A stretch of DNA of 64,000 nucleotides from an uncultured Pseudomonadota bacterium. GTDB taxonomy: Bacteria > Myxococcota_A > UBA796 > SXON01. The notes below the pieces were generated by a model. That model did not search any database. It was not told the origin of the DNA and saw nothing but the letters and a program-made list of their open reading frames with translations. Location: assembly GCA_903844155.1 (NCBI GenBank), contig CAIMSU010000103.1, positions 2,491 through 66,490 of the forward strand, written 5' to 3'. How positions within the stretch are numbered: position 1 is the first letter of the stretch; each line of letters starts with the position of its first letter. Below, piece by piece: positions 93 to 26,124 of this stretch. Both the position numbers and the translations under genes were made by a program.

Positions 93-1622
93 ATGGACAT
101 CCGCGCCGAAGAGATCAGCCAGATCCTCAAGCAGCAGATCAAGAACTACGACGCCCGCGTGGCGGTCAGCGAGACCGGCACGGTGCTCAAGGTCGGCGAC
201 GGCATCGCCCGCATCTACGGCCTGGAAAACGCCCTCGCCGGCGAGCTGCTGGAGTTCCCGGGCGGGTTGAAGGGCATGGTGCTGAACCTTGAAGAGGACA
301 ACGTCGGCGTCGCGATCTTCGGCGACGACAAGACCATCAAGGAAGGCGACGTCGTCAAACGCACGGGCGAGATCGTCTCCGTGCCCGTCGGCCCGGCCAC
401 CCTCGGCCGCGTCGTGGACGCGCTCGGCAACGCCATCGACGGTGGCCCGCCGATCCCTCGCGACATCATGCGCCAGGTCGAGCTCAAGGCCCCCGGCATC
501 GTCGCCCGCAAGTCCGTCCACGAGCCGCTCGAGACTGGCATCAAGGCCATCGACGGCATGATCCCCGTCGGCCGCGGCCAGCGCGAGCTCATCATCGGCG
601 ACCGGCAGACGGGCAAGACCGCCGTCGCCATCGACACCATCATCAACCAGCGTCAGTTCTTCGACGACCCCGTCAAGAAGATGCACTGTGTCTACGTTGC
701 CGTCGGCCAGAAGCAGTCCACGATCGCGCAGGTCGTCGAGAAGCTCAAGCAGTACGACGCGCTCAAGTACACGACGATCGTGGCGGCGCCTGCGTCCTCG
801 CCCGCCCCGCTCCAGTTCATCGCCTGCTACACCGGCGCGACCATCGGCGAGTACTACCGCGACAACGGCATGCACGCGCTCATCGTCTACGACGATTTGT
901 CCAAGCAGGCCGCGGCATATCGCCAGCTCTCGCTCCTGCTCCGTCGCCCGCCCGGCCGCGAGGCGTACCCCGGCGACGTCTTCTATTTGCACAGCCGTCT
1001 GCTCGAGCGCGCCTGCAAGGTCAACGACGCGTTGGGCGCGGGTAGCTTGACCGCCCTGCCGATCATCGAGACGCAGGCCGGCGACGTTTCGGCGTACATC
1101 CCCACGAACGTCATCTCCATCACCGACGGCCAGATCTTCCTGGAGACGAACCTTTTCTACGCCGGTGTTCGCCCGGCCGTGAACGTCGGCCTCTCGGTCT
1201 CCCGCGTCGGCGGCTCGGCCCAGCTCCAGGCGATGAAGGACGTCGCCGGCACGCTCAAGCTCACGCTCGCGACGTACCGCGAATTGCAGGCGTTCTCCGC
1301 CTTCGGTTCGGATCTCGACGAGGTCACCCGCAAGCAGCTCAACCGCGGCGCCCGCTTGGTCGAGCTCCTCAAGCAGGACCAGTACTCGCCGGTCCCGATG
1401 GAGCTGCAGTGCATCCAGATCGTCTGCGGCACCGAGGGCGTGTACGACGACGTCGCGGTCAACGACGTTCGCCGGTTCATCGGCGATCTGACGAGCTACT
1501 TTGAGGGCCACGAATACACCGTCGAGCTGCGCAGCAAGCTCACCGCCAAGTTCCGCGCCGGTGGCGACCTGCGTGAAAAAGTCCTCGCCGCCGCTCGCAA
1601 GTTCCGCAGCACCTGGAATTAG
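93..1622 (+). CDS. atpA: F1 ATP synthase alpha subunit
   Basis: [14 protein letters not shown] (Walker A), [34 protein letters not shown]. Confidence 0.99.
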
Positions 1623-1625
1623 CCC

Positions 1626-2531
1626 ATGGCCACGCTCCGCGACATCCGCACCCGCATCGCCTCCGTCAAGAGCACCAAGCAGATCACCAACGCCATGAAG
1701 ATGGTGTCGGCGGCCAAGCTGCGTCGGGCGACGGACGCGGCGGTCTCGGCGCGGCCGTGGCAGGAGACGCTGACGGCCACGCTGCAGCGCGTGGCGGCCG
1801 GGTCGGGCGAGATCGAGCATCCGCTGCGCCAGCCGCACGGCACGCTCCGGAACGTGATGCTCGTCGTCATCAGCTCCGATCGGGGCCTTTGCGGCGGGTT
1901 CAACGGGACGCTCCTCCGGCAGTCGGACGCGTGGATCAAGAACCAGCAGACGCAACCCGTCACCGGGCAGGGCGACGGCGGCCACGTCGCGGTTCGCATC
2001 CGCACCTTCGGCAAGAAGTCCCGGGACTACTTCAAGAACCGCAGCTACGTCGTTGACGAGAGCCGGATCGAGGTCACGACCGTCAACTTCCAGGCCGAGG
2101 TCAGCGCGCTGTCCGACGTCATGGTGTCGAAGTTCACCGCGGGCGAGGTCGACGAGGTCTACGTCGCCTACAACCAGTTCAAGAACACGCTCACGCAGAT
2201 CCCCACCTTCGTACGCGTGCTCCCGCTGTCGATCGAGACGACCGCGGTCGCCGACCCGCACGCTGGCGCCGCGACCGCTGACTACATCTACGAGCCCAAA
2301 GGCGCCGCGATCCTCAACACGCTGCTGCCGCTCTACCTGCGCACGCTGCTCCTCCAGTGTTTCCTGGAGACGGGTGCTGGCGAGCAGGCCGCGCGCATGA
2401 CCGCGATGGACAACGCCACGCGCAACGCCACGGATCTCATCAAGTCGCTCACGCTCGACTACAACCGCGGTCGCCAGGCGGCGATCACCAAAGAGCTCAT
2501 CGAAATCGTCTCTGGCGCGGAAGCGCTCTAA
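1626..2531 (+). CDS. atpG: F1 ATP synthase gamma subunit
   Basis: QITNAMKMVSAAK, SDRGLCGGFN, ARMTAMDNAT, RQAAITKELIEIVSGA. Confidence 0.99.
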   Translation: MATLRDIRTRIASVKSTKQITNAMKMVSAAKLRRATDAAVSARPWQETLTATLQRVAAGSGEIEHPLRQPHGTLRNVMLVVISSDRGLCGGFNGTLLRQSDAWIKNQQTQPVTGQGDGGHVAVRIRTFGKKSRDYFKNRSYVVDESRIEVTTVNFQAEVSALSDVMVSKFTAGEVDEVYVAYNQFKNTLTQIPTFVRVLPLSIETTAVADPHAGAATADYIYEPKGAAILNTLLPLYLRTLLLQCFLETGAGEQAARMTAMDNATRNATDLIKSLTLDYNRGRQAAITKELIEIVSGAEAL

Positions 2532-3986
<1,455 letters not shown>

Positions 3987-4001
3987 CTGGAGGCCGGCCC
4001 C

Positions 4002-4298
4002 ATGTCCCAACTCAACGTTCGCATCGTCACCCCGCGCGCCATCCTGCTCGACACGATGGCCGACGGCGTCCAGGCGCCCGGTGAGATCGGCGAATTCGGC
4101 GTTCTCCCCTCGCACATCCCGTTCGTCACCACGCTGAAGCCTGGCGTGGTGACCGTGCATGGTGCCCAAGCGGTCGAGGGCACCGTCACCCGGCGCTACA
4201 ATGTTGGGACCGGCTTTGCCGAGGCGGGTCCAGACCGCGTCACCGTGCTCGTGGAGACGTGTGAGGAGATCACCGGGAACGCGATCGCGACGCACTGA
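4002..4298 (+). CDS. atpC: F1 ATP synthase epsilon subunit, short form
   Basis: IVTP...GEFGVLPSHIP...LKPG...GFAE; position after atpD; only 98 aa. Confidence 0.93.
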   Translation: MSQLNVRIVTPRAILLDTMADGVQAPGEIGEFGVLPSHIPFVTTLKPGVVTVHGAQAVEGTVTRRYNVGTGFAEAGPDRVTVLVETCEEITGNAIATH

Positions 4299-4629
4299 CA
4301 GCGCCGGTGCGAGTCGTTCGGCATCCTTTGGGCGGCTACGTAGGCCCCGCGCCGCGTAACGCCCCTACGCGGAACGCCGCGATGATCCTACGCGGGGAGC
4401 GCCGGCAACGAGAGACCGCGTGCTCTACTCGAGTCATGCCCCCCTCCCAGCTTCGCCCGGCTCGCCGTCTGCGTTGCCGGCAATCCTGGTGCTCGGCGAC
4501 GCCGCGTCCGGCGGACGAAGCCCCGGGGACTGAGCGCGCCAGACGACCTGGGTGTACGCACCCTTTGTGCCGGAACGGCGGTCATGTCCGCTGATCAGGA
4601 GGCTGGACGCGAGGCCGGACGGGTGGGAG

Positions 4630-5640
4630 TCATGGCGCGGAAGGCGGGACGTCGGTACCGTCGCAGACGATGTTGCCGGAGACGGTGAGGCCGCAGCCGA
4701 TACCCCCATGGCCGCCCCTCTGATACTCGGCCCAATGGTCCCCCGAAGGCGCGGGGATGACTTCAAACGCCCCATACCCCCAGCAGTCTGCCTCGCTCCC
4801 ATCGAGGACCACGCCGCATGTGGCGTTGTCACCCGCGCTCAAGCTGGAGAACTGCCCGGCGGCGGGCTCTACGGTCAAGGTGTAGTCGCCACCCCAACAG
4901 GTCGGGTATCCGTCTGCGTCCAGTACGCAACAGTGGTCGATGCCACAAACCATGGAGGTGAAGCCCGAGTCAGTCGGGGTCAAGCTTTTGTAACCGGAAG
5001 CGTTGGTGAAATAGCTGTCATCGGAGCCCCAACAGGTGGGGGTTCCAGCGTCGTCGAGGGCGCCCTGGACCGTCTCCCCCCCCGCTAGTGTGCTGAATGT
5101 TTGACCGTTGGGGGGGAACACCTCACCGTCAGGCGGCGGGGCAGAGAAATTCCCGCCCCAGCAGAGTAGGGCCCCCAGATCGTCAAGGGCACAGCCGTCC
5201 CAGCCGTTCGCTACCACGGCGGTGAACGAACCCGCCGGCGCGGGCCAGTCCGGGTCCCCGGGGAAGCAGGCAATGGCGCCGGATTCATCGAGGACGCAAA
5301 CCCCGAACGCGCCGACGCTCACCTGAGCAACGGTCGTGTCAGGAAGGGAATCGAGCTCCCCGTGGGTGTCCTGCCCCCAGCAGGCGAGCCTGTTGTCATC
5401 GGCGACCGCGCAGCAATCGGCATCGCCGCAGGACAGCGCGATCCATGGCCCGGGGGTGACCGGGGGCCCGGTGTCGTGGGCCGAATCGCCGGCGGAGTCG
5501 TGGCCCGTGTCGGCGCCGCCTGTCTCGGCATTGGATGACGGCGAATCGGAGAGCCTGTCCTTGTGGGACCCGGCCTCGCAGGACCCGACCATCGCCAGCA
5601 GGGCACTCACTCCGGTGTAGGCGATCAGGCGCTCGCTCAT
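4630..5640 (-). CDS. RCC1/BLIP-II-like beta-propeller lipoprotein
   Basis: Lipobox-like MVGSC, DTG/DSA linker, repeated C-x-(L/V)-x-x-x-G-x-x-x-CWG units; ATGA overlap with the upstream gene. Confidence 0.8.
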   Translation of the reverse strand: MSERLIAYTGVSALLAMVGSCEAGSHKDRLSDSPSSNAETGGADTGHDSAGDSAHDTGPPVTPGPWIALSCGDADCCAVADDNRLACWGQDTHGELDSLPDTTVAQVSVGAFGVCVLDESGAIACFPGDPDWPAPAGSFTAVVANGWDGCALDDLGALLCWGGNFSAPPPDGEVFPPNGQTFSTLAGGETVQGALDDAGTPTCWGSDDSYFTNASGYKSLTPTDSGFTSMVCGIDHCCVLDADGYPTCWGGDYTLTVEPAAGQFSSLSAGDNATCGVVLDGSEADCWGYGAFEVIPAPSGDHWAEYQRGGHGGIGCGLTVSGNIVCDGTDVPPSAP

Positions 5641-12173: not shown

Positions 12174-13325
12174 TCAGCGCTGGTCTCGCGCCCCTGACCC
12201 GCGGGCGAGCGCCTCCCGGATCCCCGGGACGACCGCCATGGCGATCTGCTGCGCACCCGTGGGGCTCGTATGGACCGGGTCCACGAACCACGCCCCCCGT
12301 TGGTAGCCACCATCCAACGCCGCCAGGTCCACAACGACCAGGTGATGGCTCTGGCCAACGTCGCGGATGATGGCGTCGGCGCTCAAGGGGGCCCGCACCG
12401 GTGCAGCGTCGAGCCGCAGCGCTCCCGCCCAGAGCGCCGCGCGCGCAGCGGGATCCGTCGTGGAGTGGGCCCGGTAGAACGCCTCGATCGACGTGCCGGG
12501 ACAGAGTCGGGAGGCAACGCCGGCGAGGGCGAAGGTGTTGAAATGGGGCGGGAGGGCGCCGCGAGGGGGCAGGTTGGCCGCGCACTGGGGCGCGCTGTGC
12601 ACGTAGACGCCGGTTGGCGGGTGGTCAAAGCTCCGGAACAACGTGGTCAACACCATGGGGACGGCGGTGCTCTCGGCGACCTCCGTCAGCTCGGTCCGGA
12701 AGCGCGCGTCGACCTTGTCGACGTTCCGGATCGCAAAGTCGTCGGAGATCGCAAGCACCCCGGGGTCCGGGGACTGGCTCCGAAGGCGGCTGAGGGGCGA
12801 GAGCCACTGGTGGATCCACGAGTGCGAGAGGACCTGCTCCAATGGCAACGTCCAAAGCGTGACGGCCCGGATCGAGCCGTCGAACACCGACTCGTTGTAG
12901 TCGTTGTGGCCGGTCATCACGACGATGGCATCCGGCTTGAACGGCCCAATCTCCGTGATGAGCCGCCAGACGCCCGCTGTGGAGTAGCCCGGGATCCCCA
13001 GGTTCACGACCTGCAAGTCCGGTGCGAGCTCGGCCACCCACGAGGGAAAGTTTCCGTCCCGCGGCGTGGGGACCCCCATTCGCACGGTAGAACCGCCCAG
13101 AACCACCACCCGCGGCCGCCCGTCCGGGGCCGGCACAGGCACCGATAGGCGGCGATCAAACGGACAGACGAGCCCGGCGCTGTCGATGCGGCACTGACCG
13201 ATTCGCGAGTAGCCCTTGCTCGGCGGAGGCTCACCGGAGACGAGGTGTGCAACGCCCTCGATGGCCCCGAAGGCGCCCACCGTCGTCAGAAGGCCGAATA
13301 TAACGCTGCGAACCGTGCGATTCAC
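12174..13325 (-). CDS. Membrane-anchored SGNH/GDSL hydrolase
   Basis: VLGGST, NLGIPG, GHND, FVDPVH; N-terminal TM segment. Confidence 0.85.
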   Translation of the reverse strand: MNRTVRSVIFGLLTTVGAFGAIEGVAHLVSGEPPPSKGYSRIGQCRIDSAGLVCPFDRRLSVPVPAPDGRPRVVVLGGSTVRMGVPTPRDGNFPSWVAELAPDLQVVNLGIPGYSTAGVWRLITEIGPFKPDAIVVMTGHNDYNESVFDGSIRAVTLWTLPLEQVLSHSWIHQWLSPLSRLRSQSPDPGVLAISDDFAIRNVDKVDARFRTELTEVAESTAVPMVLTTLFRSFDHPPTGVYVHSAPQCAANLPPRGALPPHFNTFALAGVASRLCPGTSIEAFYRAHSTTDPAARAALWAGALRLDAAPVRAPLSADAIIRDVGQSHHLVVVDLAALDGGYQRGAWFVDPVHTSPTGAQQIAMAVVPGIREALARGSGARDQR

Positions 13326-13590
13326 GGAGCAAGCCCGGCATGCGAGGGGCACAAAAGCAAGGTGCGGACCACGACAGCGCCCTACCGTCCCCGCCCGGCC
13401 GGGTCAACGCGCGGGGGCCATGCCCCGCCGCCACCTGGCTGGCCAAGTTGAAGGCGCGACTTCGTGCCCCGCACGAAGCGTGCCTTCGACGCGGTCAGCA
13501 GCGGTCGCGCTCGCCCGAACCTGCGCAGGTGTGGACGGGTCAAGAGAGGTCACGAACACGCGTGGCGGCTCGAAAGCCAAGGCGCGACGA

Positions 13591-13633
13591 GAATAAACAG
13601 CCAACACCGGACCGAAGGGGCCGGTGTTGGCTG
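13591..13633 (-). terminator. Intrinsic-terminator-like hairpin
   Basis: 13-bp stem CAGCCAACACCGG/CCGGTGTTGGCTG; minus-strand loop contains cTTCGg and is followed by TTTATTC. Confidence 0.55.
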
Positions 13634-13802
13634 CACGACGCCGGCCGATTGCAGGTCGCTACGTTACCCTCCGTCAGCCGACGTACCGCCGGCAAAGGTC
13701 CCCCATGTCCCGCTCGCTCTGACTGTCCCCCCAACCCGGGGTTCCCGGGTCCACGCACCGCGAGCGCTGACCGATCTTCGGGGCGTTTGCCCTGGAGATC
13801 CA

Positions 13803-14930
13803 ATGTCCGATCAGACTTCTTCACTCGCCAACGTCGACGCGATCGTCGCCGGCGTCATCGCACCAGCCGCCGCCACTGTCGACCGCGATGGGGCATTTCC
13901 CGCCGCTGCCATCCGGGCGTTGGGTGAAGCCGGGATCCTCGGCCTTCTCATCCCCGAAGCCAACGGTGGCCTTGGCCTCGGGCCGGACACCGCCGCGCTT
14001 GTGGTGGAGCGCATCGCGGGCGCCTGCGCCAGCACGGCCATGGTCGTCTGCATGCACTTCTCCGGCTCCGCGGTGCTCGCGCAACACGGAACTGTCGAGG
14101 TCCAACGCGAGGTCGCAGCCGGCCGGCACCTCTCCACGCTCGCGTTCTCGGAGACCGGCTCGCGCAGTCACTTCTGGGCGGCGATGTCCAGCGCGAAGGT
14201 CGATGGCGACACCGTCGTCCTGGACGCGCAGAAGTCCTGGGTGACGTCTGCGGGCCACGCGACCGCGTACGTCTGGTCGTCGCGCCCGGCGACTGCGGAG
14301 GGTTTTTCGACGATCTGGCTGGTCCCCCGTGGATCCGCGGGCCTGTCAGCCCCCGCCGGCTTCGACGGCATCGGGCTACGCGGCAACGACTCGACGCCGA
14401 TCTCGGCCGCTGGCGTCCGCATTCCCGAGGCGAACCGGCTCGGACCGGACGGCAAGGGCTTTGACGTGATGATGGGGATCGTCCTGCCGAACTTCAACCT
14501 GTACAGCGCCGCCGTCAGCATCGGCCTCGCGAGCGCGGCGCTCGCCCGAACCTGCGCGCACGCGGGCGCGACCAGGCACGAGGAGGCAGGCACGTCGCTC
14601 GCCGAATTGCCGACGATCCGCGCCCACATCGCGCGGATGCAGATCAAGGTGGACATGACCCGGCTGCTCTGGCTCGACACCATCGCGGCGATGGGCGCCG
14701 GCAGGCCCGACACGATGCTCCGCGTGCTGGAGGTCAAGGCGGCAGCCGCCGAGACCGCGCTGGAGGTCACCGCGACGTGCATGCGCGTGTGCGGCGGCGT
14801 CGCGTTTCGCAAGGAAGTCGGCGTCGATCGCGCGTTCCGCGACGCCCAGGCCGCCAGCGTGATGGGCCCGACGACCGACGTGCTGTGGGATTTCATTGGC
14901 AAGGCCGTCACCGGCCTGCCGCTCTTCTAA
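13803..14930 (+). CDS. Acyl-CoA dehydrogenase-fold flavoprotein (non-canonical)
   Basis: IPEANGGLG, LAFSETGS, KSWVTS, GLRGNDS, CGGVAF, FRDA; GGAG RBS before ATG 13803. Confidence 0.9.
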   Translation: MSDQTSSLANVDAIVAGVIAPAAATVDRDGAFPAAAIRALGEAGILGLLIPEANGGLGLGPDTAALVVERIAGACASTAMVVCMHFSGSAVLAQHGTVEVQREVAAGRHLSTLAFSETGSRSHFWAAMSSAKVDGDTVVLDAQKSWVTSAGHATAYVWSSRPATAEGFSTIWLVPRGSAGLSAPAGFDGIGLRGNDSTPISAAGVRIPEANRLGPDGKGFDVMMGIVLPNFNLYSAAVSIGLASAALARTCAHAGATRHEEAGTSLAELPTIRAHIARMQIKVDMTRLLWLDTIAAMGAGRPDTMLRVLEVKAAAAETALEVTATCMRVCGGVAFRKEVGVDRAFRDAQAASVMGPTTDVLWDFIGKAVTGLPLF

Positions 14931-14950
14931 CCCCGGAAACCGGAGGTACC

Positions 14951-15799
14951 ATGCGCCCTTTCATCCTCGGTGCGGTCGCCTATGACCCAAAGGTCGTAAC
15001 CATCTGGGACGGCTTCAAGCTGTACTTCGAGGCCAACGGCCTGTCGTTCGACTACGTGCTTTTCCACAACTACGAACGGCAGGTCGAAGCCCACTTTGCG
15101 GGCGTGATCGACGTCGCGTGGAACTCACCGCTGGCATGGGTCCAGGCGCAGCGGATCGCCACCCGCCTCGGGCGAAGGGCCCAGGCGGTGGCGATGCGAG
15201 ACACCGACCAGGACCTGACCTCCGTGGTGCTGGTGCGGACCGAGGGGCCGGCGACGATTGCCGACCTGACTGGGCGACGAATCGGCGTTGGAGCAATGGA
15301 TTCACCGCAGGCGACGCTACTGCCGCTGCTGCAGCTCGCGGAGCGGGGCCTCGACGTCCACCCCGACCATCCCAATGTCGTCCGGCACGACGTCCTCGTC
15401 GGCAAGCACGGCGACCACATCGGCGGCGAGCGTGAGGCCGTACGGGCGCTCCTGCACGGGGATGTCGATGCTGCCTGCATCATCGACGGCAACCTGGCCG
15501 CGTTCACCCAGGAGGGCACCGTTCGTGCGGGCGCGTTGCGCGTGCTGGCGACGACCCCAGCCTACGACCACTGCAACTTCACCGTGTTGGACGGCACCGC
15601 CACCCGACCGCTGACCCGCTTCCTGGCGTTGCTCCACGGAATGTCCTGGGGCGAGGCGGACACGCGGCGGCTGATGGATCTGGAGGGGCTGAAAGCCTGG
15701 CGCCCGGGCAGGACGACTGGCTACTCGGCGTTGGACCGGGCCTGCACCCGCTTCGGCACCGCCGACGCCTTCGTTGCCCAGCAGGTCGCGCGGGGATGA
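14951..15799 (+). CDS. PhnD/SsuA-like substrate-binding-fold protein without signal peptide
   Basis: IDVAWNSPL, SVVLVR, IADLTGRRIGVG..DS, GDVDAA; GGAGG RBS. Confidence 0.8.
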   Translation: MRPFILGAVAYDPKVVTIWDGFKLYFEANGLSFDYVLFHNYERQVEAHFAGVIDVAWNSPLAWVQAQRIATRLGRRAQAVAMRDTDQDLTSVVLVRTEGPATIADLTGRRIGVGAMDSPQATLLPLLQLAERGLDVHPDHPNVVRHDVLVGKHGDHIGGEREAVRALLHGDVDAACIIDGNLAAFTQEGTVRAGALRVLATTPAYDHCNFTVLDGTATRPLTRFLALLHGMSWGEADTRRLMDLEGLKAWRPGRTTGYSALDRACTRFGTADAFVAQQVARG

Positions 15800-17010
15800 C
15801 GCGGCGACGGGTCGTGGACCTGACCGGCGCGCGCATGGACCAGGGCGCCGCGCTGATCGTCCGCCACGCCCTCGCTGACATGGGGCCGGGCGACGAGGTC
15901 CGCGTGGTCGGCGACGACGCCTCCCTTGTCCCGACGCTGCGGGCGCTCGCACGCGCGCTCGGCGCCCCCTTCACCGTCGAGGCGGATGGCGCCTGCGTCC
16001 TCGGCGCGTCCACCCACCCCGACGGCCGTCGCACCGGCGGCATGCTCGTGCCCACGGCGCCGGCCGACCACGCCCACCCGCGATGGGGCCTCGCGGCGCG
16101 CGGTACACTGGTGGAGGCCGGTGGACCCGAATTCGCCTTTCCGCTCGCCGAGAAGCGCGCCGTCTGGACCGACGAATTGGCGCGGCTCTACGCGCAGGCC
16201 GCCGCGGCGCAGTGGGACCCAGCGACGGCGATCCCGTGGGCCGAGCCGCGCTGCGACGACGACGCCGTGGAGGCCGCGGTCGTGCAGGTCATGGCCTACC
16301 TGGTCGAGAACGAGACGGCCGCGCTGCTGGTCCCGGCACGCTTCTGCGCCCAGGTTCACCCGCACTTTCGCGAGGTGCTCCAGCTCCTCGCCATCCAGAC
16401 CGCTGACGAGGCCCGTCACATCGAGGTTTTTACGCGTCGCGCCGGGTTGGAGGCGCCGCGCGGCCCCGGGCCGGCCCCGATGCCACCCCTCTCGACCGTC
16501 GGCGGCCAGACCAGCCTGAAGAGCCTCGTTGACGAGCCCGACTTTGCCCTTGCAAGCTTTCTTCTCTCCGTCCTCGGCGAGGGATCGTTCCTGTCCCTGC
16601 TCCGGTTCCTGGACCGCTACGCGCCCGACGCCGTCACCCGCGCCGTCGCCCGCCTCGCCGCGCAGGACGAGGCCCGCCACGTCGCCTTTGGCCTCGCGCA
16701 CCTCGAACGTCAGACAGCCCTCGACCCGTCGCTCCGGCCCCAGCTGGCGGCAGCCGTCCACGCGCGCCACGACGCCTTGGCGCACACCGCCGGGTTGAAC
16801 GCCGAGGTTTTCGATGCGCTCGTGCTCATCGCCGGCCACCAGCCCAATCGCCCAGCGTGGGACCCCGTCGGCATCGCAACAGGTTGGAACGCCGTGCAGG
16901 AGCTGATCGCCGAGATGGACGCGGGCCGGCAGGTTCGGCTCCGTCGACTCGGGTTCTCGGGGGCCGAGGCCGCGGCGTTGAGCGCGCTGCATACGCGGAA
17001 TTTCATGTGA
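15796..17010 (+). CDS. TusA-like N-domain fused to a ferritin-like (AurF/R2-type) di-iron domain
   Basis: VDLTG...LADMGPGDEVRVV N-terminus; QWDP..AIPW, ENE, DEARH, GEG, DEARH; ATGA overlap. Confidence 0.8.
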   Translation: MTRRRVVDLTGARMDQGAALIVRHALADMGPGDEVRVVGDDASLVPTLRALARALGAPFTVEADGACVLGASTHPDGRRTGGMLVPTAPADHAHPRWGLAARGTLVEAGGPEFAFPLAEKRAVWTDELARLYAQAAAAQWDPATAIPWAEPRCDDDAVEAAVVQVMAYLVENETAALLVPARFCAQVHPHFREVLQLLAIQTADEARHIEVFTRRAGLEAPRGPGPAPMPPLSTVGGQTSLKSLVDEPDFALASFLLSVLGEGSFLSLLRFLDRYAPDAVTRAVARLAAQDEARHVAFGLAHLERQTALDPSLRPQLAAAVHARHDALAHTAGLNAEVFDALVLIAGHQPNRPAWDPVGIATGWNAVQELIAEMDAGRQVRLRRLGFSGAEAAALSALHTRNFM

Positions 17011-20600: not shown

Positions 20601-21077
20601 GTGAGTCAAGCATCGGATCGAGCGGCGGCTCGCTATCAGCAGCCCGCGCTCAAGGAGGCGCTCACCTGCGAGCACCTGGAAGCGTGTTTTCGGGACGAGG
20701 CATCGGCGGCGACTGAGTGCGCCTACTTCGCCCGCATCGCCGAGATCGAGGGCGAGCCGGAGATGGCGCGCGCGCTGCGGGAGTTTGGCGAACAGCACGC
20801 CTGCAACGCAAAAGGCAGCCTGGACCTGTTGATGCGGGCGCGTGAACCGCTGACGGGACGGACGATGGGCAGCACGGTCGAGAACGTCGCCGCGATGCGG
20901 TCGTTCTACGCGGGCGACACGGAGACAGAGGACCGGCGGGCGAGGACGGCCAGGAACGAGGGGTTTTCCGACATTGCGAGCTGGTTTGCCAGCCTCGCGC
21001 GGCTGCGTCACGCGCACGCCGAGCGCCTCGCTGCGTTGGCGCCGGCCGCCGCTGAACCGAAGCCGGAGGGGTCATGA
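20601..21077 (+). CDS. Degenerate rubrerythrin-like protein
   Basis: YFARIAEIEG.PEMA, ARTARNEGFSDIASWF; ExxH motifs altered. Confidence 0.8.
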   Translation: MSQASDRAAARYQQPALKEALTCEHLEACFRDEASAATECAYFARIAEIEGEPEMARALREFGEQHACNAKGSLDLLMRAREPLTGRTMGSTVENVAAMRSFYAGDTETEDRRARTARNEGFSDIASWFASLARLRHAHAERLAALAPAAAEPKPEGS

Positions 21078-23059
21078 CCACCCCCTACGATGCCGCCAGC
21101 ATCGTCATCCTCGAGGGCCTCGACGCCGTTCGCATGCGTCCGGCGATGTACGTCGGGTCGACGGGCGCAGCGGGCGTCATGCAGCTCGTCATCGAGGTGC
21201 TCCAGAACGCGCTCGACGAGGCGCTCGCCGGCCACGCCTCGCACATCACCGTGACCGTGGACGCCGCCGGGCGCTGGACCGTCGATGACGACGGGCGCGG
21301 CATGCCCGTCGACCAGCACAGCAGCGGGCGACCGGTCCCTGAGGTGCTCGTCAGCGAACTGCACGCCGGGGCCAAGTTCCGCGACGGCGCGTACCGTCTC
21401 CCAGGCGGTCTGCACGGCGTCGGATTGACCTGTGTGAACGCCCTCTCCGCGGAGTTCGCGCTGGAGGTCCGGCGCGACGGCGGCCGTTGGCGCGGCCACT
21501 GGGTCGCCGGCAAGCTCGCCGGGGCGTTCGGGCGCGCCGAGGGCAAGGACGCACACGCGCTCGACACCGGCACGCGCGTCACCTTCCTTCCGGACGCCGC
21601 GATCTTTGGCGGTGAACGGGCGGATCCGCAGGCCGTCGAGCGGTGGCTGCGGTCACAGAGCTGGCTGACGTCCGGGCTCACGTGCACGCTTACCGTCGCC
21701 GGCGTTGGGGCGGACGCGGCCCGATCGGTGCGGTTTTCTTCCGACGAAGGCGTCGCGGGCTTCGCGCGGTGGCTCGCCGGGCATCAGGAATTCGTCCATC
21801 CAACGCCCATCGTCGTGCACGCATCGGCGGGTGAGGGCCCGGAGGTCGACGCCGCGCTGCTCTGGACCCGCGCGTTCGCCGAAGACCTCGTCTGCTTCGT
21901 CAACCACGTCCACACGCCCCTGGGCGGTGCCCACGCGGACGGGTTCCGGGCCGCGGTCGGGCACGCGCTGACCCGTTACGCGCGCGATGCGCGGCTGCTC
22001 GACGCCGAGGGGGCGAAGGGCTCAGAAGCAGACCGCATCGACGGATCCGACGCGATGGAGGGGCTGGTCGCCGTCCTGTCCGTCCGCATGCACGACCCGC
22101 ATTTTGAGGGGCAGACAAAGACGCGCCTCCTCGACCCCGCTGCCGGCCGTGCCGTCGAGGATGCCGTCGGCACCGCGCTGAGCGCCTGGCTCCGCGCCCA
22201 TCCCGTCGACGCCGCTGCCATCGTCGGCCGCGCGATCGAAGCCAGCCGCGCCCGTCTCGCCAGCCGTCGCGCGAGCGAGCGCGCCCGCTACGAGCGCGTC
22301 GAGCACCTCGTCGACAAGGACATCTACCGCCAGCAATTCGGCATCCGCTCGAAGAACTGGCACACGTCGGCCGACTGGATCACCAACGCCGGCCTCCTCG
22401 GCCTCCACGGCGGCTCCTCGCAGATGCAGGAGGACGCCGTCGTCCTCGACGTGTGCTGCGGCTCCGGTGTCGTCGGCAACTCGTTCCGCGGCAAGGTCGG
22501 CAGGATCATCGGCCTCGACCTCACGCCCGAGATGGTCGCGCTCTCGCGCACGCGCCTCGACGAGGTCGTGCAGGGCGACGTCTACGAGATCCCCTTCGCG
22601 GACAACACCTTCGACGGCGTCTGCAACCGCGAGGTGCTGCACCTGCTTCCCCAGCCTGAACGCCCGGTATCAGAGATCTTTCGCGTGCTCAAGCCCGGCG
22701 GCCAGTTCGTCGTCGGCCAGTGGGTCCCGTTCTCGGCCGTCGACGGTCCGTGGATGTTCCAGGTCGTCAAGAAAAAGCAGCCGTTGTTCGTCAACAACCT
22801 GTACGACGAGGACATGCGCGCGCTCCTCGCCGGCGCCGGATTTGTCGGCCTCACAACCCAGGAATTCCTGCAGTGGGAGGACATCGACAACTGGATCGCG
22901 ACCTGGGAGACGCCCGCGCTCCACCGTCACCAGATCCGGGATTTGTACAACCACTGTCCGGCCGAGGTCCGCGCCGTCCACCCGTTTGAGATTTCGGCGA
23001 CGGGCGCCATTCGGGATTGCTGGCGGTGGGTGGTGTACTCGGCGTTCAAACCCGCGTAG
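21074..23059 (+). CDS. GyrB-like GHKL ATPase/transducer fused to a class I SAM methyltransferase
   Basis: LEGLDAVRMRPAMYVG, EVLQNALDE, DDGRGMP, GGLHGVG, FEGQTK; then VLDVCCGSG, GLDLTPEM, IPFADNTFD, RVLKPGG; no TOPRIM EGDSA motif. Confidence 0.92.
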   Translation: MTTPYDAASIVILEGLDAVRMRPAMYVGSTGAAGVMQLVIEVLQNALDEALAGHASHITVTVDAAGRWTVDDDGRGMPVDQHSSGRPVPEVLVSELHAGAKFRDGAYRLPGGLHGVGLTCVNALSAEFALEVRRDGGRWRGHWVAGKLAGAFGRAEGKDAHALDTGTRVTFLPDAAIFGGERADPQAVERWLRSQSWLTSGLTCTLTVAGVGADAARSVRFSSDEGVAGFARWLAGHQEFVHPTPIVVHASAGEGPEVDAALLWTRAFAEDLVCFVNHVHTPLGGAHADGFRAAVGHALTRYARDARLLDAEGAKGSEADRIDGSDAMEGLVAVLSVRMHDPHFEGQTKTRLLDPAAGRAVEDAVGTALSAWLRAHPVDAAAIVGRAIEASRARLASRRASERARYERVEHLVDKDIYRQQFGIRSKNWHTSADWITNAGLLGLHGGSSQMQEDAVVLDVCCGSGVVGNSFRGKVGRIIGLDLTPEMVALSRTRLDEVVQGDVYEIPFADNTFDGVCNREVLHLLPQPERPVSEIFRVLKPGGQFVVGQWVPFSAVDGPWMFQVVKKKQPLFVNNLYDEDMRALLAGAGFVGLTTQEFLQWEDIDNWIATWETPALHRHQIRDLYNHCPAEVRAVHPFEISATGAIRDCWRWVVYSAFKPA

Positions 23060-23068
23060 AATGCGGGG

Positions 23069-23518
23069 GTGAGACGAACCCGCAAACGATCTGGGCTGTT
23101 GCCGGTGGTCATCCTCGTGGCCGGCGAGGCGTTGGGGTGTGGCGGAGGCAACTTCTTTGACAGCGCGAGCGGGTGCTGCTTTCACACCTGCAACGCCTGC
23201 TCACCCGAGGGCATGCACCAATGCTCCGACACCGGCGACCACGCCGATGCCGTTTGCACCGACCCGACGGGGATGTACGCCGACAGCGCGGACACGGGCT
23301 CGCGCGAGACCGGGCACGACAGCGCGAGAGACAGCGCCGCGTCCGACTTCACCCCCGACACCGCTGTCGACACCGCCCCGCCTGATTCTGGGGGTCGGGA
23401 CTCCGGAATCGACACCGGGGTGGACACCGCCCCGCCTGACTCCGGGATTGGCGACACCGCGACCTCAGACACGGGCGCTGGCGACACCGGCGTCGACACG
23501 GCGACGTCCACGCCGTGA
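23069..23518 (+). CDS. Cys-rich exported peptide/lipoprotein with DT/DS tail
   Basis: Basic N-terminus, hydrophobic stretch, ALGC; core GCCFHTCNAC...QC...VC; VDTAPPDSG occurs twice in the tail. Confidence 0.7.
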   Translation: MRRTRKRSGLLPVVILVAGEALGCGGGNFFDSASGCCFHTCNACSPEGMHQCSDTGDHADAVCTDPTGMYADSADTGSRETGHDSARDSAASDFTPDTAVDTAPPDSGGRDSGIDTGVDTAPPDSGIGDTATSDTGAGDTGVDTATSTP

Positions 23519-24168
23519 CCCCTGCCGTCCGCTCCGCCTGGGCTGGCCGGACGGCCGCCGAGTACCGCTCAGCCGCCGTCGCCAGCGAGATGCTGCACTG
23601 GTGCATCGTGCTCGGCGTCGCCCCTGACCTCGTCGCCGAGGTGCACCGCGTGGTCGACGACGAGCTCAACCACGCCGACATGTCGCGCGCTGTGCACGAG
23701 GCAGCCGGCGGGCTGCCGACGGACGTGGTCATCGCGCGCGAGAGCTTGTCCCTGACGATCTGCCCGACGGAGACGTTGGAGCGACGGGCGTTGGCGGCGG
23801 CGTTCCAGGAGTTCGCCGTACACGAGACCGTCGCGCTGGAGTGCTTCCGCGAGATGCGCAAGCACGCGCTGGTGCCCATCGTCCGTTCGACGGTCGACCG
23901 GATCGCGAGGGATGAGGCCCGGCATCGCCGGGTTGGTTGGCGGCTCGTCGAATCCCTGTTGGCGCAGACCGGCGAGCGCAAGTGGCTGCAGACGATGGTG
24001 GCGCCGGCCGTCGACGGCGTGCTCCTCGCGTACGGGACGCGTCACGCGCCGACAGCGGAGGATCTGCGGTGGGGCCTGCTGGACCCGGACGCCTACCTGC
24101 GAGCCGTGCGACGGGCGAGAGCCGGGCCGATCGCCCGGGAACTCGCAAGTAACATACTGTATTTCTGA
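23515..24168 (+). CDS. Ferritin-like di-iron domain protein
   Basis: AEYRS, DELNH, HETVA, DEARH..GW; GTGA overlap with the upstream peptide. Confidence 0.85.
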   Translation: MTPAVRSAWAGRTAAEYRSAAVASEMLHWCIVLGVAPDLVAEVHRVVDDELNHADMSRAVHEAAGGLPTDVVIARESLSLTICPTETLERRALAAAFQEFAVHETVALECFREMRKHALVPIVRSTVDRIARDEARHRRVGWRLVESLLAQTGERKWLQTMVAPAVDGVLLAYGTRHAPTAEDLRWGLLDPDAYLRAVRRARAGPIARELASNILYF

Positions 24169-24565: not shown

Positions 24566-25144
24566 TCAACCCCACCCGATCGTCCCCTCCACCCCCTCGT
24601 AGAGATCGTCCATCGAGACGGCGATGCCGAGACATGCGATCTGCACGTCCCCGCCCACGATGTCGAGCAGCGTCCAGCTCCCGTCCGCGTTGCGCGCGTA
24701 GCTGTTCACCCAGCGGCGGCGCGAGTCGATGAGCAGGACCGCCTGGACCGACGCGCGACGACGGTAGTGCTCCAGCTTTGCGCCGCGGTCGTAATTCTGG
24801 GTGCTCTCCGACAGGACCTCCACGATGACGGTCGGGTTGAGCAGGGTCGGCGGGTTGGTGGCGGCGAACTCCCGCTCGCCGCAGACGACCAGGACATCGG
24901 GGTAGGCGTAGAGGCCGGTCTCGTCAATGTGGGTGCGACAGTCGGACACGAACGGGCGACAAGGGCCGCCTTTCAACTCGGCATGAAGGGCCGCGTAGGC
25001 GTTCCCCGTGAGCACGAGGTGCGCCTCGCTCGGCCCCGCCATCGCGATGATCTCGCCGTTCACATACTCATGCTTGCCCTCGTTCGCGAGATCGAACGCG
25101 AGGTACTCCGCTTCGGTGACGAAATGCTGTGCGGGTCCGGCCAT
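24566..25144 (-). CDS. Uma2 family endonuclease
   Basis: KHEYVNGEIIAMAG, YPDVLV, PTVIVEVLSEST..YDRG.K..Y. Confidence 0.93.
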   Translation of the reverse strand: MAGPAQHFVTEAEYLAFDLANEGKHEYVNGEIIAMAGPSEAHLVLTGNAYAALHAELKGGPCRPFVSDCRTHIDETGLYAYPDVLVVCGEREFAATNPPTLLNPTVIVEVLSESTQNYDRGAKLEHYRRRASVQAVLLIDSRRRWVNSYARNADGSWTLLDIVGGDVQIACLGIAVSMDDLYEGVEGTIGWG

Positions 25145-25239
25145 GCCACAGTCTACCCCACTCCTCGCCGCTGTTGCCACCGTCCAAAGCCAAGTGTATA
25201 CCGCACGCATCACCCGCCCTCGGCGGTGACGGAGCGTGC

Positions 25240-26124
25240 ATGCCATCGTCCATCGTCAAAACTCTCTGGATCTTCGCCGGAATCCTGGCGAGCACGCCGC
25301 TCATCGTCCTCCCCCTGGCCTGCGGCTACTCGGGCACGCCCGCGGATCCCTCGACCGGCGACTGGGACGGCGACGGCTTCACCGGCGCGCAGGGCGACTG
25401 CAACAACACCGACGCGACCTTCTACCCAGGCGCCCCTGACACCGTCGGCGACGGGATCGATGAGAACTGCGACCTCACGGACGGCGTCGACGCAGACGGC
25501 GACGGCCACGCCGACATCCCCTCCGGCGGCGACGATTGTGACGACGCCGCGCGCGACACGCACCCCGGCGCGTTCGACGCCTGGTACGACGGCATCGACG
25601 AAGACTGCGCCGGCAACGACGATTACGACAAGGATGGCGACGGCGTCGACTCGTCCGACTACGGCGGCGAGGATTGCAACGACAACAACCCCGCCATCCC
25701 CGGCCCCGAGGTCTGGGACAACATCGACAACAACTGCGACGGCTTCGTCGACGAGATCACCGCCACGTTCACCTACCAGGACGACGGGAACGGCGGCAGC
25801 GTCATGGTCGTCACGCTGCAGAACAGCGATCCAGGCGGCGAGTCGATGGGGCTGGCGGAGACGAGCCAGGGCGGCGCGGGCTGGTACGGCGAGGACTGCA
25901 TGACGCGCCACGGGAGTTGCCATCTGCTTGGCGCGGCTGGCGGCGAGTACACCGTCGTCGACAACACGGCGGACGTACGGATGGGCAGCACGACCTACTT
26001 TAGCGAGGCGCGGCTGGCCGGGAGCGCGGTCGTGTTCTGGGACACCCACAACAACTGCACGGCGATCGGGTCGGGTGCCGACTACTACGCCGCAGAGGGC
26101 TGTGACATTGAAGAGGGCTGGTAG
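25240..26124 (+). CDS. Lipoprotein with MopE-type putative metal-binding repeats
   Basis: LAC; repeated DxDGDG...DCxD...PGA...DGIDExC. Confidence 0.85.
   Translation: MPSSIVKTLWIFAGILASTPLIVLPLACGYSGTPADPSTGDWDGDGFTGAQGDCNNTDATFYPGAPDTVGDGIDENCDLTDGVDADGDGHADIPSGGDDCDDAARDTHPGAFDAWYDGIDEDCAGNDDYDKDGDGVDSSDYGGEDCNDNNPAIPGPEVWDNIDNNCDGFVDEITATFTYQDDGNGGSVMVVTLQNSDPGGESMGLAETSQGGAGWYGEDCMTRHGSCHLLGAAGGEYTVVDNTADVRMGSTTYFSEARLAGSAVVFWDTHNNCTAIGSGADYYAAEGCDIEEGW

Follow-up and report, generated by a model that had tools for sequence, protein, structure and literature searches.

We report that an open reading frame (ORF) joining the ATPase module of DNA gyrase subunit B to an S-adenosylmethionine (SAM)-dependent methyltransferase is an intact member of the NucP/AcmP family, one of the proteins of the sulfamylation sub-cluster that builds the 5'-O-sulfamoyl group of nucleocidin and ascamycin in Streptomyces; we give this assignment a probability of about 0.78. 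The ORF occupies positions 21074–23059 of a 64,000-nucleotide stretch, hereafter the window, of contig CAIMSU010000103.1 in the metagenome-assembled genome (MAG) GCA_903844155.1 of an uncultured bacterium. An original prediction, made from the sequence of the window, had recognized the fusion and treated its architecture as new. That view had to be revised, as this kind of fusion is already in print as AcmP (2014) and NucP (2023). What is new here is the occurrence of the module beyond actinomycetes and its strict co-inheritance with the other genes of the pathway.

Assignment of the fusion to the NucP/AcmP family

The window protein was compared with the sole homologue found in Streptomyces calvus T3018, and the two share 48% identity over residues 5–660; this identity over the full length makes the window protein a member of the NucP/AcmP family. 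The T3018 ORF, which is the sequence used in the comparison, was taken as NucP from its record label, its neighbors and the statement, in the sections of PMC10946740 used here, that nucP has no paralogue in producers. The window protein has the features of the family, namely a GyrB N-terminal ATPase with transducer, a class I methyltransferase, a length of about 640–670 aa and no TOPRIM domain. The expected partners are also present: a pseudo-rubrerythrin gene is adjacent, and homologues of NucJ, NucG, NucK, NucO, NucN and NucL, together with a supply of 3'-phosphoadenosine 5'-phosphosulfate (PAPS), are encoded on several contigs of the binned genome. The NucP/AcmP proteins of the nucleocidin strains S. 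calvus and S. virens, as well as of the ascamycin strain Streptomyces sp. JCM9888 agree with it in length class (658–670 aa), architecture, rubrerythrin-like neighbor and gene set.

Two published studies describe this gene set. The ascamycin gene table (PMC4257720) places acmP (658 aa, "DNA topoisomerase II") next to acmQ (155 aa, rubrerythrin) and lists acmG as a sulfatase, acmJ (557 aa) as an Fe-S oxidoreductase, acmK as a sulfotransferase, acmL (250 aa) as a methyltransferase, acmN as an amidinotransferase, and acmO (444 aa). Wojnowska et al. (PMC10946740) deleted 26 genes in S. calvus and found that nine of them, nucI, G, J, K, L, N, O, Q and P, were needed for sulfamylation and not for fluorination, as were the PAPS genes nucA and nucW. 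Deletion of nucP abolished assembly of the 5'-O-sulfamoyl group, nucL and nucP were separately required, and the knockout outcomes left the roles of the remaining enzymes unexplained (PMC10946740, section 9). The sulfamylation set comprises NucG, NucJ, the sulfotransferases NucK and NucO, NucL, the amidinotransferase-fold protein NucN, NucQ and NucP, and is fed by PAPS.

The window itself carries NucG-, NucJ- and NucQ-like genes and lacks NucK, NucO, NucN and NucL. Elsewhere in the same MAG (95.6% complete, 5% contamination), NucN-, NucO- and NucK-like genes stand in a row on the minus strand of contig C277 (locus L084, 5773–11600), beside a second sulfatase and an EF-hand protein. Contig C286 (locus L085, 3465–4340) has a NucL-like methyltransferase gene beside an aromatic amino-acid lyase gene, and its product is 57% identical to the copy of Streptomyces sp. 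TP-A0356 (L036). Contig C242 encodes an adenosine 5'-phosphosulfate (APS) kinase. The set is dispersed over three contigs, whereas each Streptomyces set forms one cluster, and no fluorination, halogenation or alanyl-tRNA genes were seen here. The hosts also differ, ours being a high-GC MAG whose nearest database relatives are labelled Myxococcales/Myxococcota.

A complete GyrB-type ATPase tethered to a SAM methyltransferase

Every motif on which the original prediction had relied was located in the protein, with EVLQN at residue 41, DDGRG at 72, GGLHGVG at 111, GTRVTF at 166, QTK at 347, SRARLASRRASERAR at 391–405, VLDVCCGSG at 457 and RVLKPGG at 537. Pfam assigned HATPase_c to residues 34–174 (E 4.5e-13), DNA_gyraseB to 226–402 (E 6.1e-39) and Methyltransf_11 to 458–547 (E 6.4e-22). 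An unbroken alignment spans residues 4–402 from one end to the other against the crystallized 43K fragments of GyrB in 6enh and 1kij (E about 5e-80), which bears out the claim that GyrB is followed as far as the helix ending the transducer before a full methyltransferase takes over in frame. A full-length AlphaFold2 model built on 124 relatives had a mean pLDDT of 92.1, and its N-terminal half matched GyrB ATPase regions in Foldseek with TMt 0.94–0.95 and a root-mean-square deviation (rmsd) of 1.9–2.4 Å over about 395 columns. Disorder in this model was confined to residues 405–411, exactly at the join.

The METHYLTRANSFERASE module of the fusion, its C-terminal part, when folded alone, reached a pLDDT of 94 and a pTM of 0.91. 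Its closest solved folds were BH2331 (1vl5) and YcgJ (1xxl), both with Z 25.1, four units above the next match; 222–224 residues aligned at an rmsd of 2.3–2.4 Å and 24% identity, and the profile E-values against YcgJ and BH2331 were 1.8e-27 and 7.4e-27. YcgJ of Bacillus subtilis and BH2331 of B. halodurans occur as separate proteins, and no function is named in the titles under which they were deposited; the matches that rank below them are generic small-molecule methyltransferases, so that no substrate can be inferred for the module from its fold. In contrast to these two proteins, the module of the fusion has an additional, strongly conserved N-terminal helical cap and a fused ATPase. We conclude that the fusion is a two-module enzyme in which a complete GyrB-type ATPase is joined, by a flexible tether of about seven residues, to a YcgJ/BH2331-like small-molecule SAM methyltransferase.

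As the original prediction had stated, the fusion is not a topoisomerase subunit. Residues 1–404 match the GyrB 43-kDa fragment (1ei1, 1kij, 3zkb) end to end and keep the ATP-binding and hydrolysis motifs and the strap, but, unlike GyrB, the protein has neither TOPRIM nor the C-terminal GyrA-binding tail, and no gyrA adjoins its gene. No Pfam match to Toprim or DNA_gyraseB_C was obtained in the protein, the EGDSA motif is absent from it, and its NCBIfam gyrB score was 331.6 bits against a cut-off of 882.4, all gyrB and parE scores being far under their cut-offs. Neither GyrA-type (PF00521) nor Toprim (PF01751) domains were matched on the contig of the window, C103. Elsewhere in the genome there are canonical genes: C319 and C280 encode full-size GyrB-type proteins of 825 and 896 aa, respectively, each with Toprim and C-terminal domains, and GyrA-type genes (PF00521) occur only on C117 and C280. 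The 896-aa GyrB-type gene (locus L002, 742–3432, minus strand) adjoins the GyrA-type gene of C280 and has an extension of about 275 residues before the ATPase domain. Another GHKL protein outside type II topoisomerases, the truncated GyrB of Myxococcus xanthus (3cwv), matches only distantly (E 3e-14) and lacks a methyltransferase.

The fusion is real and both active sites are conserved

To judge the join, we compared the fusion with its relatives in other genomes. The same three Pfam domains (HATPase_c, DNA_gyraseB and a methyltransferase) were found in 119 of the 120 best listed relatives, down to 49% identity, and the sole exception is a 495-aa fragment. A scan of one genome per species yielded 154 species genomes that encode a relative of the fusion; the best 80 loci were fetched, and all 80 have the fusion architecture. 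Full-length homologs had been named as one check in the original prediction; the fusion is joined at a domain boundary and is not a random chimera. The reads were consulted through contigs from Logan for two runs, one of 8706 bases at depth 32.5 and the other of 8705 bases at depth 67.5. Both, assembled independently, cover 20900–23200 in one piece with zero differences; since the two runs may be the source sample, this is a check of the assembly, not independent biology. The frame is open, and stop-free matches occur in 39 relatives of the same order.

One feature could have been taken as a sign of a chimera. Within the interval 21000–23100, the G+C content is about 0.73 across the GyrB half of the ORF and drops to about 0.63–0.65 in the methyltransferase half. 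We rejected this step as evidence of a chimera, since the NucJ-like neighbor has an equally low G+C content and the methyltransferase half is simply better conserved (its identity to the window protein averages 0.69, that of the GyrB half 0.51). With the drop in G+C as the point in its favor, and with the bridged join, the open frame, the shared architecture and the invariant active sites of both halves against it, an assembly chimera or decaying pseudogene has a negligible probability.

Conservation was counted in the alignment of the 124 relatives. In the GyrB half, E41, N45, D72, K101, Y107, G112/G115/G117, T167 and K349 are kept in 124/124, Q347 in 123 and the strap residue Tyr5 in 122. 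The corresponding GyrB positions were matched through the PDB alignment, and these residues presumably serve, as in GyrB, as general base, Mg ligand, adenine contact, ATP lid and QTK lysine. The module thus has what a GyrB/topoisomerase IV B ATPase is expected to have, a GHKL domain and a transducer with the catalytic Glu, the Mg-binding Asn, the ATP lid and the QTK Lys. The methyltransferase half likewise combines the Rossmann-like fold of class I SAM enzymes with their motif I (D-x-G-x-G-x-G) and, following strand 2, their acidic residue, and its SAM-site residues D459, G463, G465 and D482 are present in all 124 relatives. Judged from these alignments, the fusion appears to hold a hydrolysis-competent GyrB-type ATP site with a dimerization strap and a SAM site, both intact, and neither half is decaying.

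The gene set is inherited as a unit and occurs beyond actinomycetes

The distribution of the fusion was surveyed in 61 genomes of the order to which the window belongs, its own genome included; kin are not independent, so the counts describe a pattern and are not a statistic. A full-length NucP-like gene was found in 39 of the 61 genomes (23 of the 35 of high quality and all four of the same genus), always in one copy and with identity falling with kinship, from 77–88% through about 60% to about 50%. NucN-like genes were found in 40 and NucJ-like genes in 41 of the genomes. All 39 genomes with the NucP-like gene have both of the others and 20 of the 61 have none of the three, so that there are two exceptions to the co-occurrence, both in genomes that are 75–76% complete. 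In several genomes of the order the genes of the set lie 45–85 kb apart or on different contigs, yet they are kept or lost together.

Outside the order, relatives of the fusion occur in cultured Streptomyces, Micromonospora, Actinomadura and Verrucosispora, and in genomes labelled Gemmatimonadota, Elusimicrobia, Desulfobulbia, Armatimonadetes, Acidobacteriota/Pyrinomonadaceae and Clostridiales; MAG labels are given as in the records, and some are plainly wrong (e.g. Klebsiella, Bifidobacterium). In one locus labelled Clostridiales (L082), genes of aminosugar or aminocyclitol type (DegT aminotransferase, HAD-radical SAM fusion, BtrH_N, ROK and dehydroquinase) precede a seven-gene set, and CysD-like and CysN/C-like sulfate-activation genes come after it, the flanks lying at 1075–5063 and 13306–16010. 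This context suggests a portable module that is attached to different scaffolds, and hints at a sulfamoylated or sulfated product that is not a nucleoside. The searched literature, which did not extend to subscription papers, held no report of the module outside actinomycetes.

NucL and NucQ as candidate partners of the fusion

NucL/AcmL, the free 250-aa methyltransferase of the pathway, is a paralogue of the whole C-terminal module of the fusion. The NucL-like proteins of two loci (L036 and L060) align with 22295–23050 of the window at about 27% identity, which corresponds to residues 408–659 and includes the helical cap. NucL has no ATPase module, but beyond the SAM motifs it shares with the fusion the invariant polar residues R519, H636 and D648. 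In several loci (among them L022, L026, L029, L034, L048 and L055), the next gene after the fusion is a NucL-like one of 250 aa. Moreover, one relative (P0028, 900 aa) is a natural GyrB-methyltransferase-NucL triple fusion, whose residues 657–900 are 71% identical to the NucL-like protein of our MAG; this argues that NucP and NucL act together.

In 77 of the 80 loci, the gene immediately upstream of the fusion is the NucQ-like one, and in the window the two overlap (Table 1). When the NucQ-like and NucP-like proteins were modeled together, the median complex score was 0.50 (runs 0.46, 0.57 and 0.50), against 0.00 for the best of three controls, with a partner pLDDT of at least 72 and with at least 50% of the contacts in agreement between runs. 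In the benchmark, 58 of 80 solved complexes and 2 of 110 mismatched pairs attained this mark; those that attained it with a score of 0.60 or below were only 7 of the 80 solved complexes, and both mismatches. The prediction therefore lends weak support to a NucQ-like/NucP-like complex.

A proposed role for the ATPase and alternative explanations

MutL, Hsp90 and MORC are GHKL clamps that are not topoisomerases and that belong to different GHKL subfamilies; to our knowledge, no clamp of these types acts in small-molecule biosynthesis. In the 43K fragment of GyrB, the C-terminal helices exit the dimer side by side (1ei1). We propose, as a scheme that has roughly one chance in three of being correct, that ATP binding would close the N-terminal gate of the fusion into a dimer, as in GyrB, and that dimerization would draw the methyltransferase modules at the C-termini close to each other, with their paralogue NucL as a probable further member of the assembly and NucQ as a possible one. 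The nucleotide cycle or ATP hydrolysis might then gate or time methyl transfer onto a small intermediate or onto a carrier of the sulfamoyl group. Since the -O-SO2-NH2 group of nucleocidin and dealanylascamycin is unmethylated, any methylation would have to be transient (cryptic) or to take place on a carrier. An ATP-gated clamp that controls methyl transfer, one of the two readings in the original prediction, is plausible, as it would fit the conservation of the strap Tyr, the ATPase site and the SAM site. In its broader form, the proposal is that a GyrB-type clamp has been recruited to small-molecule biosynthesis, where ATP-driven dimerization would be coupled to cryptic methylation during S-N bond assembly, in a complex with NucL and NucQ; the set being co-inherited in about two-thirds of the order, sulfamate-type or related metabolites would be far more widespread than known. 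We put this forward tentatively.

Several observations weigh against the assignment to sulfamylation or against the role proposed from it. The link to sulfamates is by analogy with one Streptomyces genetic study, at 48% identity, and we found no report of NucP/AcmP enzymology in the literature searched. The cassette is split over three contigs, so that a second organism in the bin could in principle be the source of the NucK/O/N-like and NucL-like genes. A helix-turn-helix (HTH) ORF that recurs in Streptomyces loci (cluster c7) had no homologue in our MAG when used as a query. The module is nearly core in the order, which is unusual for an antibiotic pathway, and its product may not be a nucleoside sulfamate. 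The methyl-free end products leave the need for two methyltransferases unexplained. Finally, with a pTM of 0.66, the full-length model does not fix how the two modules are oriented to each other.

One alternative is that, in this and other non-actinomycete lineages, the module would make another sulfur-nitrogen or sulfated metabolite, such as a modified lipid, sugar or cofactor. Its near-core, co-inherited state in 39 of 61 genomes, the dispersal of the set genes in relatives and the aminosugar/aminocyclitol-type surroundings of the Clostridiales-labelled locus (DegT, BtrH_N, ROK) would all agree with such a product, as would the fact that no nucleoside-specific genes were seen beside the cassette in the window. 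However, the genome has all nine sulfamylation gene types bar the HTH ORF of actinomycetes, and no other chemistry is known for this set. We regard a different product as a serious possibility, though less likely than not.

It could also be that the GyrB clamp is a scaffold or regulator, an ATP-driven platform that holds NucQ, NucL, NucJ and the sulfotransferases, with the methyltransferase serving as a SAM- or ligand-binding or docking domain. The clamps of MutL, Hsp90 and MORC do combine nucleotide-driven dimerization with the recruitment of partners, translation of the NucQ-like gene is coupled to that of the fusion, its neighbor in nearly all loci, and both the weak complex prediction (0.50 against 0.00) and the natural NucP-NucL fusion would suit a platform. 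The methyltransferase half has, however, the marks of a catalytic site, since none of the 124 relatives departs from SAM motif I or from the acidic residue that follows strand 2, and R519, H636 and D648 are likewise invariant, and we consider a purely scaffolding role improbable.

The original prediction had offered, as one possibility, an enzyme that captures and methylates an antibiotic. In this form, the GyrB pocket would act as a self-resistance decoy that binds an ATP-competitive gyrase inhibitor or the AMP-like sulfamate product, which the methyltransferase would inactivate. The ATP pocket is intact and R134, which we take to be the equivalent of the aminocoumarin-contacting Arg of GyrB, is kept in 120 of 124 relatives, but the same pocket residues are equally required for ATP binding, and E41, Q347, K349 and the strap Tyr are conserved, which a passive decoy would not need. 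Conserved neighbors of the fusion are sulfur-metabolism and radical SAM genes, and no gyrase-inhibitor cluster lies nearby. In addition, nucP deletion abolishes sulfamylation, with no loss of viability reported in section 7 of PMC10946740, the part used here. This idea was therefore not borne out, and we consider it very unlikely. The proposal of an ATP-gated clamp acting in sulfamoyl assembly remains the one that we prefer.

The cassette in the window and its surroundings

The genes of the cassette and the modules of the fusion are collected in Table 1. No specific NCBIfam family was found for any protein of the cassette, all matches being sub-cut-off. The NucJ-like protein scored best with HpnJ (124 bits, cut-off 577.6); its gene gave a tblastn match in 65 of the 80 loci, of which 63 showed an identity of at least 50%. 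The NucQ-like protein matched Rubrerythrin below the cut-offs of both Pfam (E 0.0028, 18.5 against 22.8) and NCBIfam (38.4 bits against 200). A rubrerythrin would carry two E...ExxH di-iron motifs; in the alignment of the NucQ-like protein, the first helix pair reads AEIEG, and there is no His three residues past the second Glu; NucQ is described as lacking two of the six ligands in the sections of PMC10946740 used here. The NucG-like protein is 66% identical to a member of neighbor cluster c2 from locus L013, and c2 was found in at least 42 of 81 sources. The N-terminus of the NucG-like protein resembles a lipobox or lipoprotein signal (…LLALLAC…), and the formylglycine motif C/S-x-P/A-x-R was not found in the protein. 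Judged on these features, it may be an exported member of the alkaline-phosphatase superfamily that uses another nucleophile, rather than a classical sulfatase.

Table 1. Coordinates of the fusion, its modules and the neighboring cassette genes in the window
Feature	Coordinates	Strand	Basis and remarks
NucG/AcmG-like alkaline-phosphatase-superfamily "sulfatase", 467 aa	17460..18863	+	Pfam Sulfatase, E 2.7e-28
NucJ/AcmJ-like B12-binding radical SAM enzyme, 556 aa	18912..20582	+	Pfam B12-binding and Radical_SAM; CxxxCxxC at residue 263
NucQ/AcmQ-like pseudo-rubrerythrin, 158 aa	20601..21077	+	Weak Rubrerythrin match; TGA stop overlaps the ATG of the fusion (ATGA)
NucP/AcmP-family fusion, GyrB 43K ATPase and SAM methyltransferase	21074..23059	+	661 aa, ATG start
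GyrB N-terminal module, residues 1–404: strap, GHKL ATP site, transducer with QTK loop, terminal long helix	21074..22285	+	Pfam, PDB alignment, Foldseek
Flexible linker, residues 405–411	22286..22306	+	Only segment with pLDDT <50 in the full-length model
Methyltransferase module, residues 412–661: N-terminal helical cap (YRQQFGIRSKNWH), class I Rossmann core, C-terminal lid	22307..23056	+	Pfam, model, fold search

Recurrent neighbors of the fusion were clustered from crude ORF calls (longest ORF, with a GC3 heuristic) in the 80 loci and the window, 81 sources in all. Because the caller missed or merged some genes (NucK in L069, and over-long ORFs that contain the fusion), the cluster counts are lower bounds. 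A sulfatase recurs in at least 42 sources, a weakly sulfotransferase-like protein in at least 39, a clear sulfotransferase in at least 34 and a protein of the arginine-deiminase/amidinotransferase fold in at least 31. The free methyltransferase of 250 residues also recurs and clusters with the C-terminal half of the fusion. The HTH-domain ORF of cluster c7 (337–392 aa) was found only in 11 Streptomyces loci (L036, L040, L042, L043, L049, L050, L058, L059, L069, L071 and L080), between the sulfatase and radical SAM genes. NucI was not recognized by its sequence. The position of the HTH ORF among the genes suggests that it may be nucI/acmI, listed in print as an "acylsulfatase", in which case it would be a regulator and not an enzyme.

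Downstream of the fusion, the ORFs at 23069–23518 and 23515–24168 and the Uma2 gene at 24566–25246 (minus strand) were considered as members of the cassette and rejected, each being present in 0 of the 80 loci. The first encodes 149 aa, with a hydrophobic N-terminus and repeated DTG.DTAPPDSG-like units, and has no Pfam match. The second is one of two ferritin-like ORFs that flank the cassette, the other lying at 15796–17010; both have weak matches to AurF, a di-iron N-oxygenase (E 4e-4 for 15796–17010 and 7e-3 for 23515–24168). The Uma2-family gene encodes a putative endonuclease (E 3.1e-32), and nine further copies, at 36–54% identity, are found on other contigs of the genome. Upstream of the cassette are genes for a phosphonate-type periplasmic binding protein (14777–15796) and an acyl-CoA dehydrogenase (13464–14927).

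Implications for sulfamate biosynthesis

Nucleoside sulfamates are potent inhibitors of aminoacyl-tRNA synthetases and serve as drug leads. The natural route to the sulfamoyl S-N bond is an open problem, and the gyrase ATPase is the strangest component of the pathway. The breadth of the module, its inheritance as a unit and the strict conservation of both active sites of the fusion define a minimal conserved gene set, from which biochemistry can set out on cleaner ground than from the Streptomyces clusters by themselves. Many orthologues are available for expression, and the natural NucP-NucL fusion points to a working partner. For annotation, genes of this kind should not be named "DNA gyrase subunit B", as several sources do. 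If the reading proposed here is true, sulfamate-type or related, as yet unknown, metabolites would be far commoner in nature than the few known actinomycete antibiotics.

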